Positions 49,106 to 54,534 of a DNA stretch of 64,000 bases are shown here, piece by piece; position 1 is the stretch's first letter, and each line of letters starts with the position of its first letter. Both the position numbers and the translations under genes were made by a program. The notes beneath the pieces were generated by a model, which was not told the origin of the DNA, searched no databases, and saw only the letters and a program-made list of their open reading frames with translations. The DNA is from an uncultured Chloroflexia bacterium (GTDB taxonomy: Bacteria; Chloroflexota; Limnocylindria; Limnocylindrales; CSP1-4), in NCBI GenBank assembly GCA_963833225.1, contig CAWHXD010000019.1, positions 704,001-768,000 on the forward strand. The letters run 5' to 3'.

Positions 49106-49603
49106 GTGAACATGAACATGCTCACGGTGTTCCTCACGTTCTTCGCCGTGGCCGGTCCGCCGGTCGTTGAGGCGATGCGCGCCAGACGACGGCTCGATGA
49201 CGCCCTCGTCGCTCGCGGGTCCCTGCCGCGTCACCCGGGGCGTGGGCTCCCGCCGGGAATGTCGATGTTGGAGGCACTTCGCCTGTTCGTCGTAACCTGG
49301 GGCCGTCAAGACACGATCCGCGTGGACTTGGCGATCGAGGACTTCGAGCGCAGCAAGCAGGCCGCGAAGCTGGGTCACGATCTGCCAGAGGGCCGGGCGG
49401 CAGGGAGATGGACGATCGCAGCGTTGCTGCTCTGGCTTCTCGGTCTGCCGCTTGTCTTGATGCTCCTGCCGACGGCGGACCGCGTCGTGAGCGTTGTTGT
49501 CCCCGCATTCGCCGTCATCCGGGTCCCGCTCGTCATCGCCGGCTGCTGGGCCGTCTGGCACGCGATCCGCGTGGCACGCTCGGCCGCGTCAGGCGGCTCC
49601 TGA
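49106..49603 (+). CDS. Passenger membrane protein (hypothetical)
   Basis: Three hydrophobic segments; lies inside the TIR pair. Confidence 0.55.
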   Translation: MNMNMLTVFLTFFAVAGPPVVEAMRARRRLDDALVARGSLPRHPGRGLPPGMSMLEALRLFVVTWGRQDTIRVDLAIEDFERSKQAAKLGHDLPEGRAAGRWTIAALLLWLLGLPLVLMLLPTADRVVSVVVPAFAVIRVPLVIAGCWAVWHAIRVARSAASGGS

Positions 49604-51711
49604 GACCAATGGCTCCCCCAAAGAACGGCAGGTCGAGCTCGTCGTCGGGCGCGATGACCGCCACCTTCGGGATCGTCTTCGGCCGCATCTTCTTGCAGTC
49701 GGGGCAGGCCGGCGTCCCGAACGGCACCTTGACCCGGGCGCGGGGCGACATGCGGTAGGGCTTGTGGCGCGGGTCGGCGCATGACCAGGTAACGGTCTTC
49801 GCGTAGGTCGCCTTGATTGTGAGCGGCGTCCGGGGCAGGTTCGCGTCGGCGTCCCACTCGGGGACGAGGTCAGGCCGGACGCCGGCGACACTCTCGGCGG
49901 CGGTCGTCCGCGCCGTCGAGCACCGCTCGCAGCGCGTCCGGCGCTTCGTGCGCTGACCAACCTCGGCCCTCCACTCGTGCTGGCAGCGGTGGCACAGCCA
50001 GCGAGCGTCGTAGTCGGAGCCGGCGGTGACGACGGCGATGTCGCGCTCGTTGCGCTCGAAGTCCCAGTCGCGGGCGATCTCGGGGTAGTCGGTGAGCATG
50101 GTGCCCGCGACGTCGGCCGAGATCGTGCGCTGGCCCGGCTTGAACCGGAACGTGAGCGGCGGGAAGCCCAGCCGCCGGCGCTCCTCGTTGTCCTCGACGA
50201 TCCGCCGCCAGACCGACTTCACCTTCGCGCCCGCGAGGTAGGCCGGCCGCGCCTCCTGGTCCCGGTCGCGCGCCGCGAGCAGCAGCCGCGACAGCGATCG
50301 GAGCTCGGTGGGATCGTCCTCGCCGGCTTCCCAGTCGGGATTCACGAACGCTGGACCGACCTCGCGGAGGTGTTCCTTGATGATCGCCGCGAACTCGGCC
50401 TCGCCAGCCTGGCCCGAAACTCCGAGGCGCGCATGAGGTTCAGGACCATCTGCAAGCGGCGGGCGTTGCGGAACCGGAACCGCCGGCGGTCGGTCAGCTT
50501 GGTGTCGATGAAGTCGAGCAGGCCCTCGGCCGGGCTGTTGTTCCGGGGATGGTCCTTGAACCCGGGCACGCGCAGCGCGATCTGCGCCCGGACGCGGTCG
50601 GTGTTCGCGCCCATCCACTCGATGATGTTCCCGCAGTCGTGCTCGTCGGCGAACGTGAGCAGCGCCTCCCAGTCGTCCTCGGAGAGGAACGCCCGCCCGA
50701 GCAGCGGCTTGATCTCCTCGTTCTCGGCCGGCCAGCCGTCCTTCGCAGCCCAGGCTTCGAGCGCGCGTTTCAAGTGGAACTCGCAGGCCACGAACGTGGC
50801 GTTCGGCCAGCGGAGCATCGCCGCCTGCTTGATCGCCTTCGCGCCGTCCGCGACGACCCACTCGACATCGCCCGGCAGCTCGCCGAGGAAGTCCGACCAG
50901 GACTCGCGCGTCTCATCGGGCGAGAGGTGCAGCCCCCACGCCCGGAGCGGCCGCTTGGGGTCGTCGCCGCCGACTGCCGCGAGCACTGCACCGGCGCGCT
51001 TGTTGGGGTCCCAGCGCTCGCCGTGATCCACCGCGTCGTAGGGGAACAGATGCAGCGGCAGCGAATCGAGGACCAGGATCTTGGGCCAGCGCTTGGGGCC
51101 GAGCTTCTCGTCGATGAGCTCGCCGAACAGGTCGATGTAGCGACCCGAGAGCCCGAAGGCGCGGCTGGCGTAGCGGAACCCGTGCTCGTCGGTCTCGTAG
51201 CGCTGGGCGTCGTAGCGGACCTTCTGGGCCGCCTTGCGGCCGGAGTCGCCCGACCCGATCAACGCGAGGACCTTGCCCATCTCGTTCGCGCTCGTGTCGA
51301 AGCCGACCGGCGTGAGCGGTCCCTGTGCCACGCCCGGCACCACGTCGCAGGCCGAGCAGGCCACGCCCAACGGGTGGCCGCTGCACGCCGGCCGTCGCGG
51401 CTCGGAGAACGTGTGCGGCTTGATCGCCGGGTCGTCCGGGACGCACTGGAACCGGGGCCGGCGGAAGGGCCGGGGTCAAGTCCCAGCACGTGGTGTCACA
51501 CCTCGCGCCTGATCAACTTGCCATGAGCAACGGCTGGCTCGCCTCCTCGGTCGTGGTGACGGCATCGATGGCCGCCATGGTCTCGGGCCGGAAGTAGCGC
51601 CGGCCGTCCTGCCACTCGTCGTCCTGCTCGGCGAGGATCATGCCGACGAGGCGCAGCACGGACGCCCGATTGGGGAAGATCCCGACGACCCCGGTCCGGC
51701 GCTTGAAGCTC

Positions 51712-52798
51712 TCATGTCAAGTCCCCGGTCCGTCGGGCGTCCCGGAGCATGGTTCGGTAGATCGCGTCGGAGAGGTGGCGCTTGAGGACGCGCATAGCCT
51801 CTCGACGAGTGTGGCCATGTGCGCGGGCCTGGTCGTGGATCTGGCGGGCGCGGGGTTCGTAGCGGAGCTGGATCATCGCGATGCGGTAGATGGCGGCGTT
51901 GAGGCGCCGGTTGCCGCCGCGGGAGAGGCGGTGCCGGACGGGCGCGTTCTCGCCCTCGCCCGAGCTGGCCGGGATCGGCGCGGTGCCGTTGAACCGGGCA
52001 AAGCCGGCCTCTGTGAAGCGTCGGATGTCGCCGACCTCGACGATGATCTCGGCCGCGGCGCGGGGCGCGATGCCGACGAGCTCGGTGAGCGTCGACTTCG
52101 TCTCACGCGACCAGGGTGGTGAGTTCGGCGGTGGCCGCCTTGTCCTGCTCGAGGACGTCGCGCAGCATCGCCACGCGGTGCTCGATCAGCCGCAGCCGCA
52201 GGGCGACCGTGGGGTCGGTGACGCCGGAGGTGTCGAGCCGACGCAGCGAGTTCACGCGAGCGCTCACCGTCTTCGCTGGCCGGAGCTGGGCGCGCAGGTC
52301 CTCGGGCAGGTCGTGCACGAGGGCGTCGAGCTCGCCGAGGAGCTGGACGCGGACCTTGGTGAGGGAAGTGCGGGCGTTGTGCCACAGGGCGATCCGGTCG
52401 CGGACCGAGTCCGGCGCCGCCGATACCGCGTGCTTGAACGCCCGAGCGAGACGAGGGTTCGTCTGCGTCTCCGCGGCGATCCGGTGTGAGTCGAGCCGGT
52501 CGGACTTGCCCTCGTGACGGCCGCGCTGGCGGGCCGTCGTCTTGTGCGGCGGCACGTCGCGAACATCGCATCCGGCCTCGACGAGGAACTCGGCCAGGTG
52601 CCGGCCGAGCCCGCTGGCGCCCTCGACGCCCCAGCGATCGGCCGGGCCGAGCCCGGCAGCCCACGCCAGGCCGGCGTCATGCCCTTCGCGCGTGTTCGGG
52701 AAGTGGGCGTGTCCGAGCTCGCCGCCGCGCGAGTCGAGCACGGTCGCCGTGAACGTCTTGCGGTGCGGGTCGACGCCGACGATGTTGGGTGCCGTCAT
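51712..52798 (-). pseudogene. IS110 DEDD recombinase, +1 frameshift near 52105
   Basis: VGVDPHR, WGVEGASG, GKSDRLDS; downstream frame gives GTAPIPASSG and RLSRGGNRRLN. Confidence 0.9.
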
Positions 52799-52819
52799 GT
52801 AGTCGCCTCCAGGGTTCTG

Positions 52820-53030
52820 ACCGTCGTGGGGGAGGGACCGCGCGACGACATCCCAGTCGAGGGATCGACGCTCTCATCAGGTCAGCACGGTCCTCGGGCG
52901 ACCGTGCCGGGGTCGACACTTCAAACGGAACACCGCCACCAAATCGAGGTGGCGCCGGAGATCTCCTTCGAGTCAGGCCTCGGCACGGTCACCCACCGTA
53001 CGGGCCGCCGTCGCGGTCCTTCCGGCAGGG
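52820..53030 (-). ncRNA. Putative IS110 bridge RNA
   Basis: Two stem-enclosed loops; guides match the target (AAGGAGATC; CGTTTGA) and the donor junction (ATGAGAGCGTC vs ATGAGAGCTTC); ends approximate. Confidence 0.8.
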
Positions 53031-54534
53031 ACCACTTCAACACCAGGATCTCCTTGTTGAGCCGCTCGAGCGGGTTCGTGCTGCGGATCTTCGCCCGGTG
53101 GGTCTCAGGGAAGCTGAAGTGGGCGAGGAGATCGGGCTCGGCGTCGGCGAGCAGCTCGGCGACCGCCGCGAACCGCGGCCGGAGGCCCTCGAGGACCGCG
53201 TCGACCTGGCTGCGGGCCGACCGCTCGTCGGGCTGCTCGAACACCAGCCGGATGGCACTCGCGACCATGCTCCGGGCACTCCGGGGCACGAGGTCCTGGG
53301 CGTTGCGGGTGAAGTGCACCCGGCACCGCTGCCAGGAGGCTCCGAGCAGCTGCTCCCGGATCGCCTTCACCAGTCCGGCGTGGTCGTCGCTGATCACCAG
53401 GCGGACGCCCCGGAGGCCCCGCTCGACACAGGCCGCGGATGAAGGCTGGCCAGGCTGAGCCCTCGTCGTGCCCGGGCGACAGCTCGACTGCCAGCACCCG
53501 GCGCTCGCCACTCATCGCGACCCCGACCGCGACCAGCGCCGCCATCGACACCACCCGACCTGCCTCACGCACCTTGAGGTACGTGGCGTCGAGCCACAGG
53601 TACGGGTACGCGGTGTCACCCAGCGGCCGGCTGCGGAACGCCTCGACCTCGGCGTCGAGCGCCGCGCAGATGCGGCTGACCTCGCTCTTGCTGATGCCCT
53701 CGATGCCCAGGGCGCGGACGAGGTCGTCGACACGCCTCGTGGACACGCCCGACACGTACGCCTCCTGGACCACGGCGAGCAGCGCGCGCTCGGCTCGTCG
53801 CCGCGGCTCCAGCAGGCTCGGGAAGTACGAGCCGTCGCGGACTCGTGGGATCGCGAGCTCGACGGTGCCCACGCGGGTGTCCCAGCGCCGATCGCGGTAC
53901 CCGTTGCGACGGGTGAGGCGGCGCTCCGGATCCCGCTCGCCATGGGGGAGGCCGGTGAGCTCGGTCACCTCGGCCTCCATCACCGCCTGGGCGAGCACCC
54001 GCACGCCCTCGCGCAGAAAATCCTGGTCGCCCTCGGCGATCGCCTTGCGCACCGTGTCCTAGCACGGCCATCCTGTCCTCGGCCATCTCGGTGTTCTCCG
54101 TGTCGTCGGTTGCTAGTCCAACGACGCGAGGATGACGCGGTGGCCGTTTCCGTTCACGGCCTCAGCGCTGTGACACCAAGTCTGGGGACATGACCAGGGC
54201 CGGGAGCCCCAGTCCGGGTTGCCGTGGATGCGGATGGCGCCCCGGTGACCCTCGTCGCAGGCGATCGGCCGGTTCGGGATGGCGAGCGGCGGCCGGCCGC
54301 CGATCCGGCGGGCAGGCGGCGGAACGAGCGCGAGAGGCGGCGGGAGCGGGAGCGCGACGGCCATCGGCCAGACCGTGGCAGATCCGCGTGCCACCTTCCA
54401 TGACACGGGAGACCCACCGGGCCTACTTCATAACGAGGAGGTTTCACACACTGGGTGGCGCAGTTGTACAGCCACTCAACTGCGCCACCGGGTGTGGGAA
54501 ACCCAGCACCGGTCGTACTCCGGCGGTGCGGGAC

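Follow-up and report, generated by a model that had tools for sequence, protein, structure and literature searches.

A decayed IS256-related transposase with two DUF4379 zinc ribbons, from an apparently undescribed family that inserts beside TTGACA hexamers

A 64,000-nt stretch of DNA from an uncultured Chloroflexia bacterium (GCA_963833225.1, contig CAWHXD010000019.1, positions 704,001-768,000 of the forward strand; GTDB lineage Bacteria; Chloroflexota; Limnocylindria; Limnocylindrales; CSP1-4), hereafter the window, contains a broken transposase gene on the minus strand within 49533-54364. The gene is very probably a decayed member of an apparently undescribed insertion sequence (IS) family that belongs to the prokaryotic Mutator-like (IS256-related) superfamily, occurs mainly in Chloroflexota metagenome-assembled genomes and is found here in a composite insertion by a -35 box. 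The transposase of this family (~600-670 aa) consists of N-terminal zinc fingers, a helix-turn-helix (HTH) domain and DDE domain with a CxxH-bearing helical insertion, a long helix and two C-terminal DUF4379 ribbons. The family combines an IS256-like core with a new domain set and very sharp hexamer-directed insertion. All coordinates are positions within the window, with position 1 as its first letter, and L-numbers denote genomic loci compared with it.

The broken gene and its protein family

Three collinear minus-strand pieces of the gene were located by tblastn with P0001, the nearest intact homologue (670 aa), which also served as the query for the structure model. The pieces and the features that interrupt them are as follows.

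54196-54364, minus strand: 5' piece (MAVALP...CDEGH...DWGSRP), start of the N-terminal zinc-finger region; P0001 residues 1-57
51474-54195, minus strand: nested IS256-family element of 2,722 bp, recognized by Transposase_mut matches (E 6e-65 and 1e-38), inverted ends and a duplication
~51705-53046, minus strand: IS110-family element inside the IS256 transposase gene; boundaries approximate, placed by eye where the IS256 frame stops and resumes
50420-51472, minus strand: core piece with a CxxC motif, an HTH-like domain and an RNase H-like DDE domain plus helical insertion domain; P0001 residues 56-406
50420-50436, minus strand: frameshift between the core and 3' pieces, from tblastn frames and direct reading
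49623-50429, minus strand: 3' piece with linker helices and two DUF4379 treble-clef zinc ribbons; P0001 residues 403-670

The 5' piece is matched over P0001 residues 1-65 (54364-54173, frame -1, E 8e-24), with true homology ending near residue 57 (54196). The core piece, in frame -1, is 77% identical to P0001 residues 56-406 and matches the Pfam family Transposase_mut at E 2.2e-5. Aligned with P0001, it keeps ILVLD, VVADG, CEFH and NNSPAE, the motifs from which the initial annotation had proposed a DDE core (the last given there as NNSPAEG). The 3' piece, in frame -3, is 75% identical to residues 403-670, and the resemblance of its repeats to DUF4379 zinc ribbons, pointed out in the same annotation, is recovered by Pfam as two DUF4379 stretches (E 1.8e-21).

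The IS256-family insert is flanked by an 8-bp direct repeat, CCGGCCCT, at 51466-51473 and 54196-54203 (direct reading), and its inverted ends form arms at 51468-51500 and 54169-54201 (33 nt, 79% complementary). Excision of the insert together with one repeat removes 2,730 bp, a length divisible by three, and joins ...DWGSRP to FRRPRF... in frame, as had been claimed, and the repaired join is identical in arrangement to that of P0001 (...WKSRPFRRPRF...) and its relatives. The assignment of the insert to IS256 stands, with 169 bits for the IS256 model, but this is not a plain element: its own transposase is frameshifted and houses the IS110-family element, the gene of which is itself broken (DEDD_Tnp_IS110, E 1e-16 at 52103-52798). 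The frame change between the core and 3' pieces falls between MRASE and GQAGEAEF, in agreement with a frameshift predicted near 50428. Homologues end in ...LDLPF, which corresponds to 49623, and the window frame extends ~30 codons further to a stop at 49533; the homology-supported length is therefore ~671 aa and not the ~700 aa first estimated. The window copy is a dead transposase gene, with an IS256 insertion that holds a nested IS110, a frameshift and a lost stop. Annotation of such a broken copy would otherwise give unrelated fragments.

The split between core and ribbons could also be read as a programmed frameshift or as the boundary of two separate genes, and the ISMich2 group of the same superfamily has a conserved -1-frameshift arrangement (PMC3942029). 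This is highly unlikely for the window gene, as every one of the 19 full-length homologues crosses the split point in one frame, as does L003, the closest genomic copy, direct reading finds no slippery run at 50420-50436, and the window copy is also cut by IS256 and deprived of its usual stop. The fusion of core and ribbons is a single open reading frame (ORF) in 19/19 full-length homologues, and the inverted ends that bound intact copies are those of the window copy (L003, L005). Neither a separate ribbon gene nor a core without an RNase H-like DDE fold was found.

The 19 homologues, of 603-670 aa, were retrieved by a word-index search with the core piece as query; all carry PF14311, with identity of up to 77%. 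In an exhaustive profile search of 1.84 billion representatives, 27 of the best 150 matches are single-stretch and full-length (at least 27 clusters at 50% identity), and the remaining rows are fragments or multi-repeat DUF4379 proteins matching the ribbon part only. This search gave 17,325 matches at E 1e-3, which among the rows listed are mostly proteins of 500-1,400 aa with 5-15 tandem DUF4379 repeats and no transposase core; the DUF4379 module is a widespread array-forming unit. By taxon label, 21 of 25 genomic loci are Chloroflexota, and the other four are assigned to Thermoanaerobaculales, Acidimicrobiales, Acidimicrobiia and a beta-proteobacterium. Of 301 genomes sampled from the window's class, 25 have a match at E 1e-20, with one to three per genome and many broken, a patchy and low-copy distribution. 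No member of three protein clusters is named as a transposase, and the sole name present, 'hypothetical protein', is on a 57-aa member.

An alignment of 46 sequences shows no variation at D264, H288 and E371, and D191 is present in at least 90% of them. The N-terminus follows the pattern C..H..C..H, then H..CxxC, in which C65 is invariant and H75, C94 and C97 are conserved in at least 90%. The zinc ligands of the ribbons are C548, C569, C619, H624 and C644, all invariant, and C551 and C572, in at least 90%. Scores for DUF4379 (PF14311) are 66-98 bits against a gathering score of 24.5, with two stretches per protein.

An AlphaFold2 model of P0001 based on the 46-row alignment has a mean predicted local distance difference test score of 87.8 and a predicted template modelling score of 0.78. 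Foldseek places five ISCth4 transposase chains at the top, with E values of 3.4e-9 to 2e-7. VIA-align superposes 267 residues on ISCth4 (Z 15.6; model 110-409 on chain 105-384), a range that spans the HTH, catalytic and insertion domains according to the domain limits in PMC7780238, and gives Z 11.9 with Hermes and Z ~10 with retroviral integrase cores over residues 183-410. The spacing D264-E371 is 107 aa, all helices in the model, and is the same as the D2-to-E spacing of ISCth4; C285-x2-H288 begins 21 aa after D2, again as in ISCth4 (D241 to C262/H265). The superfamily is described as having a helical insert of ~99-138 aa between D2 and E, with C/D(2)H 11-19 aa past D2 (PMC3942029), a range that the 21 aa found here slightly exceeds. 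With ISCth4 as the top structural match and D-D-CxxH-E conserved, the proposal of a Mutator/IS256-type DDE transposase is upheld. The parts beyond ISCth4 are a zinc-binding N-terminus (1-110), a long helix (447-489) and the two ribbons (~511-650; P0001 numbering). The first ribbon superposes on a solved trypanosome mitoribosome DUF4379 protein with Z 11.4 and a root-mean-square deviation of 1.1 Å, and matches it in sequence at E 1e-13 to 1e-19.

Pairwise similarity to single representatives of the named families ISLre2, ISKra4, ISH6 and IS256 is at the detection limit. Four homologues of the main clade (clade A) and the window core score 22-30 bits with the NCBIfam model transpos_IS256 (NF033543; cut-off 150), with no match for an intact paralogue in the source genome that belongs to a distant sister clade (clade B); the true IS256 copy of the source genome scores 270. 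Scores for IS1249 (17-31 bits against 300), ISL3 (16-22 against 180) and ISH6 (13.7 against 240) are likewise below the cut-offs. Transposase_mut gives 18-30 bits against a gathering score of 21 (above it in two of the four clade-A homologues and in the window core, no match for the clade-B paralogue), and MULE gives 14-25 against 27.6, below in every case. The ISKra4 (NF033572) and ISLre2 (NF033529) models have no match to the window gene or the paralogue at E 1e-3 in a search of their own genome, which does match two other loci there at 147 and 132 bits, and hmmscan does not list them for the homologues at E up to 1. By hhalign, the family profile aligns with the source genome's true IS256 transposase at 90.5% probability over 80 columns, and with an ISKra4-like protein of the same genome at 43% over 269 columns, starting from the CxxC motif upstream of the HTH. 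An atlas look-up returned only neighbours of the Transposase_mut/MULE type, which are leads at best. On the basis of these cut-offs and profile comparisons, the family is assigned to the prokaryotic Mutator-like superfamily, outside every curated family tested. No published description of it was found in a search that did not extend to ISfinder, and a member could be listed in the supplements of PMC3942029.

IS256/ISCth4 (PDB 6xg8/6xgx; PMC7780238) is thus both the best structural and the best profile match, and shares with the family the HTH, the RNase H DDE domain with a four-helix insertion carrying C/DxxH, the identical D2-to-E spacing, 8-9-bp duplications and C-starting ends. In contrast with ISCth4, the family has ~250 extra C-terminal residues (the long helix and two DUF4379 ribbons) and a different, zinc-binding N-terminus. 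IS256 itself is ~1.3 kb long with a transposase of ~400 aa, whereas the family elements are 2.2-3.7 kb, with transposases of 600-670 aa and frequent passengers.

The TTGACA hexamer beside the element ends

Intact elements of 2.2-3.7 kb are bounded by inverted ends of 25-41 nt, all of which start with C-N3-TGCG once aligned and hold two conserved blocks, TGCG.CA and GGT.GGTAA.T. The ends of the window element (48882-48928 and 54420-54466) are shared by L003, which has a 663-aa ORF, and L005; those of other subfamilies are CTTGTGCGTCAAGGACGGTTGGTAAGTC and variants. Exact 8-bp duplications were detected by script at eight sites and one of 9 bp at L020, and 9-bp duplications were seen by eye at L003 and L005. 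The p-MULT superfamily is described with inverted ends of 18-39 bp, a terminal C and 8-9-bp direct repeats (Guerillot et al. 2014, PMC3942029).

Of the 23 evaluable unique insertions, 22 have TTGACA 14-15 nt beyond one end, where 0.013 hits are expected (binomial P ~1e-70) from 46 occurrences in 478,088 strand positions of the site sequences. Duplicates (L028, L029, L031, L048) were removed, the denominator omits three loci with an unreadable flank (L009, L010, L055), and L046 is counted after re-anchoring of its end by hand. The hexamer lies on the gene-start side in L003, L004, L005, L006, L007, L008, L015, L017, L018, L022, L043, L047, L051 and at the outer end of the window unit, on the far side in L014, L020, L045, L046, L052, L053, L058 and L059, and on both sides in L022; insertion therefore occurs in either orientation relative to it. 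Two further sites, L040 and L041, in which ends stand without a transposase nearby, obey the same rule.

The hexamer is often the -35 box of a real promoter. In the window it precedes an ArsR-type gene, and the promoter comprises the hexamer, a GTGAC-N7-GTCAC palindrome between the boxes and TATTGT 18 nt past the hexamer, shortly before the ATG. This layout (TTGACA, palindrome, TAtnGT 18 nt on) is conserved across the window and L087-L093. At this promoter, four of the eight orthologous loci (the window, L090, L091 and L092) have a family end whose distance to TTGACA is 13-15 nt, and the last three of them lack a transposase homologue within 6.2 kb. Similar sites with TTGACA and GTGAC...GTCAC are hit in L004, L015 and L046.

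The hexamer belongs to the target and not to the element, because it lies outside the duplication, the intervening bases vary by site and empty promoters keep it. A longer, asymmetric end that includes TTGACA and the preceding 14-15 nt is scarcely credible as an alternative. In its favor, the hexamer and neighbouring bases stand outside both ends of L022 as an extended inverted repeat. However, the 14-15 nt vary among sites and include the 8-9-bp duplication, beyond which the hexamer is found, and the hexamer occurs at either side of the element. Moreover, the empty orthologous promoters L087, L088, L089 and L093 retain it (as TTGACG in L089) together with the downstream gene, and no element. 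At L022 (5864-5916 and 8479-8531) TTGACA-N14 lies beyond both ends and the flanks form a 53-nt, 77% inverted repeat, which may reflect a palindromic target site or insertion into another element.

As for other superfamily members, IS256 insertions are described in the passages drawn on here as having no flanking motif (PMC3942029), in contrast with the hexamer-directed family, and ISCth4 prefers A/T-rich sites (PMC7780238). The ISKra4 group (p-MULT 4) and ISLre2/TnGBS (p-MULT 3) resemble the family in keeping a set distance of 13-17 bp between the insertion and a sigma-A -35 box, and both have 8-9-bp duplications and a terminal C; the ISKra4 group also has near-perfect inverted ends, inserts in both orientations and occurs in Chloroflexi too (PMC3942029). 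The resemblance in distance to the hexamer is a functional likeness only. The transposases of these groups are ~380-460 aa long, with no mention of DUF4379 ribbons in the same passages, and the constant feature of the family sites, unlike theirs, is the hexamer alone and not a full promoter.

Possible roles of the zinc ribbons

Two sets of elements bear on the role of the ribbons. The first is the distant sister clade, whose ends differ and whose elements lie directly against the 3' end of a tRNA gene in 3/3 cases. The window genome's own intact paralogue, at L032 on the same contig and ~606 kb upstream of the window, is a protein of 703 aa with 32% identity in the matched core and 24% to P0001 overall. 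It has the same two DUF4379 ribbons, and serine replaces the cysteine of CxxH (SRHH for CEFH). Its element (~690-3702 of L032), with its own 24-nt inverted ends and the duplication GCGCGCCA, sits exactly at the 3' end of tRNA-Arg (3703-3779), and relatives at L033 and L068 likewise abut tRNA-Ala. The second is a 1,409-bp ISKra4/ISLre2-like element, present as two copies on two other contigs of the source genome (L077, L078), with a ribbon-less transposase of 447 aa that scores 147 and 132 bits, below both the ISKra4 and the ISLre2 cut-off. In both copies TTGAC(G) stands 16 nt outside the gene-start end, counting a shared ACC within the end.

The ribbons may be sequence-specific readers of DNA, either of the target hexamer or of a subterminal part of the element's own ends, a tentative assignment. 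Such a role is favored by related arrays: the CapR-like domain in arrays of phage homing endonucleases is proposed to be a modular DNA-binding domain that adds specificity (PMC12350094). It is also favored by the ribbon-less IS256/ISCth4, for which no target motif is described in the passages drawn on. These DUF4379/CapR-like arrays, and the DUF4379 proteins of trypanosome mitoribosomes (PDB 6sga, 9hny, 6yxx), contain the same small tandem treble-clef zinc module, attached to a nucleic-acid enzyme in the former and bound in a ribonucleoprotein in the latter, whereas its partner here is a DDE transposase and not an EDxHD/Vsr nuclease or a ribosome.

In a narrower form, the ribbons would read bare TTGACA directly, with insertion one helical turn away, and the sister clade would carry re-tuned modules re-aimed at tRNA 3' ends. 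This form is rather doubtful. Three observations count against target-reading ribbons: the ribbon-less ISKra4/ISLre2-like element lies at 16 nt from TTGAC in two of two copies, the tRNA-end clade has the same two ribbons, and target choice by the published promoter-seekers, described without mention of ribbons in the passages drawn on, is ascribed to an N-terminal motif (PMC3942029). If it were true, the DUF4379 pair would act as an exchangeable targeting module of a copy-out/paste-in transposase, and recurrent insertion at a single hexamer would pile up elements and passenger cassettes as composites that move together.

Alternatively, the ribbons do not pick the target but bind the element's own subterminal ends or keep the two ends joined, in the role that ISCth4 gives to its dimerisation and N-terminal DNA-binding domains. 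The preference for TTGACA would then come from an N-terminal region shared with ISKra4/ISLre2 types, or from contact with promoter-bound proteins. This account deserves serious consideration, although it falls short of being probable. It is consistent with the ribbon-less element at 16 nt from TTGAC and with clade B, in which ribbons are kept and the target is different. The 269 columns that hhalign aligns between the family profile and the own-genome ISKra4-like protein begin at the CxxC motif, ahead of the HTH. Promoter targeting by ISLre2/TnGBS and ISKra4 is linked to a signature motif with a conserved Asp that lies between N1 and N2 (PMC3942029), and the two conserved end blocks could serve two readers. 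Against this stand the hhalign probability of only 43%, the lack of a match between the ISKra4 and ISLre2 models and the window gene at E 1e-3, and the fact that most sites conserve the hexamer only, with no -10 box. Because only the hexamer is conserved, direct reading of DNA by some domain fits better than reading of bound polymerase.

The family offers a sharper case for how Mutator-type transposases (TnGBS, ISLre2, ISKra4) find the upstream edge of a promoter. The hexamer is constant at 14-15 bp, independent sites are numerous and come with empty-site controls, different members have repeatedly hit one ArsR-type promoter, and a sister clade has an equally sharp target at tRNA 3' ends. The extra pair of zinc modules is separable and can be deleted or swapped.

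The composite unit of the window and related cassettes

The transposase element and an adjoining HipBA cassette arrived, or at least now stand, as one inserted unit (48882-56239), because the empty site L088 joins exactly its two flanks. L088 contains the duplicated stretch a single time (CGGCTATCC), has TTGACA and runs on into the left flank of the window. The unit and its borders contain the following features.

48873-48881, no strand: left copy of the probable target duplication, GGCATCCTG, of which GGCATCC recurs at 56241-56247, just beyond the far end (outer flanks alike at 7/9)
48882-48928, plus strand: inverted end (CAACTGCGCCACCCAGTGTGTGAAACC...) farther from the gene start; its 47 nt are 85% complementary to 54420-54466
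49106-49603, plus strand: hydrophobic passenger ORF of 165 aa, convergent with the transposase, from the ORF list
54420-54466, minus strand: inverted end on the gene-start side, from its complementarity with 48882-48928
54467-54476, no strand: 10-nt spacer TACAGCCACT between two abutting element ends, from the inverted-repeat boundaries
54477-56239, plus strand: HipBA cassette without a transposase, comprising a HipB-like HTH gene (~54584-54901; HTH_31) and a HipA-like kinase gene (54898-56136; HipA_C, E 5e-47)
56240-56254, no strand: 15 nt from the outer end to the hexamer, with the right copy of the probable duplication as its first 8-9 nt (GGGCATCCC), from flank comparison
56255-56260, plus strand: TTGACA target hexamer, the -35-type box of an ArsR-type HTH + AHSA1 gene (56262/56292-57086), from promoter comparison

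The element ends have four matches in the window and none in shuffles. For the transposase element proper (48882-54466), a matching duplication of its own was not found. Its passenger ORF has no Pfam match and is unlike the ORF at the same place in L003. The ends of the HipBA cassette are a perfect 27-nt inverted pair (54477-54503 and 56213-56239, 100% complementary) that differs from the ends of the transposase element at three positions. A second HipBA cassette with the same ends is absent from the 301 class genomes, and mobility of the cassette is therefore unsupported by copy number. DNA like hipBA is present in 30 of these genomes, at 71% identity or less and never extending to the cassette ends. 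Four of the five best hipBA-like loci have no flanking inverted repeats, and the fifth (L076) has long repeats unlike the family ends.

Variable passenger genes lie between the transposase stop and the far end of family elements, such as DUF2975 + HTH_26 in L005, where the transposase is broken; in L003 and the window they are small hydrophobic ORFs. Two further cassettes without a transposase were observed. At L040 (2161-3090), a 930-bp unit with family-type ends of two different subtypes carries DUF2975 and HTH_26, the same passenger pair as L005. At L094 (4422-6099), where elements are stacked at the ArsR-type promoter of another genome, a 1,670-bp unit with a flavin adenine dinucleotide (FAD)-type oxidoreductase lies between family ends, and a 7-nt spacer that is the same as the cassette's other flank at 6/7 positions separates it from the next element's end. 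The L094 arrangement fits repeated insertion at one hexamer, with elements stacked a duplication-length apart. Mobile insertion cassettes are transposase-less passenger units between IS-type ends, as in Bacillus cereus MIC231. The HipBA, L040 and L094 units resemble them as putative passengers between family-type ends without a transposase; the HipBA unit differs in its lack of a second copy among the genomes searched.

Transposition of the family would proceed by copy-out/paste-in through a circle with abutted ends, to judge from ISCth4/IS256 (PMC7780238; PMC3942029). In the window, the transposase element and the HipBA cassette would have been stacked elsewhere, and the composite would then have moved on its outer ends to 15 bp upstream of the -35 box of the ArsR-type gene. 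Stacking is placed elsewhere because the window spacer matches neither flank, and simple sequential insertion at the window promoter was rejected on the same ground. Inactivation by the IS256 insertion, itself hit by IS110, and by the frameshift came later. The family illustrates how targeting of this kind stacks elements and cassettes (HipBA, DUF2975/HTH, oxidoreductase) beside promoters of soil Chloroflexota.

Several points weigh against this overall explanation. The outer duplication is imperfect (7/9) and the 10-nt spacer is unlike both flanks, so the order of events in the composite is inferred. Sequence likeness to IS256 models is weak (22-30 bits against 150). Locus L044 has only CTGACA, at 13 nt, and ~5 of 22 hexamers have a TAnnnT box 18 nt downstream (by eye), so that 'promoter' may overstate what is recognized. 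All host genomes are metagenome assemblies, in which frameshifts and junctions could include assembly errors. The best runs of public reads contain at most 0.11 of the sampled words, and public-read contigs on 49500-51470 leave 50226-50621 uncovered, hence no read cover at the frameshift.

Upstream of the unit, the window contains a degenerate third copy of the left flank and end at 47933-47982. Over 45 nt this copy shares 80% identity with 48865-48909, from which it lies 932 bp upstream with unchanged orientation, and it may represent a relic of an older junction or a local duplication. Between this copy and the element end, at 48170-48820, is an ORF of 216 aa that matches no Pfam family. Just upstream of the degenerate copy, at 47858-47915, are three 26-nt copies (GTGGCGGCGGAGCGGTGTGACGCCGG...) that are 85-96% identical, with starts 16 nt apart.

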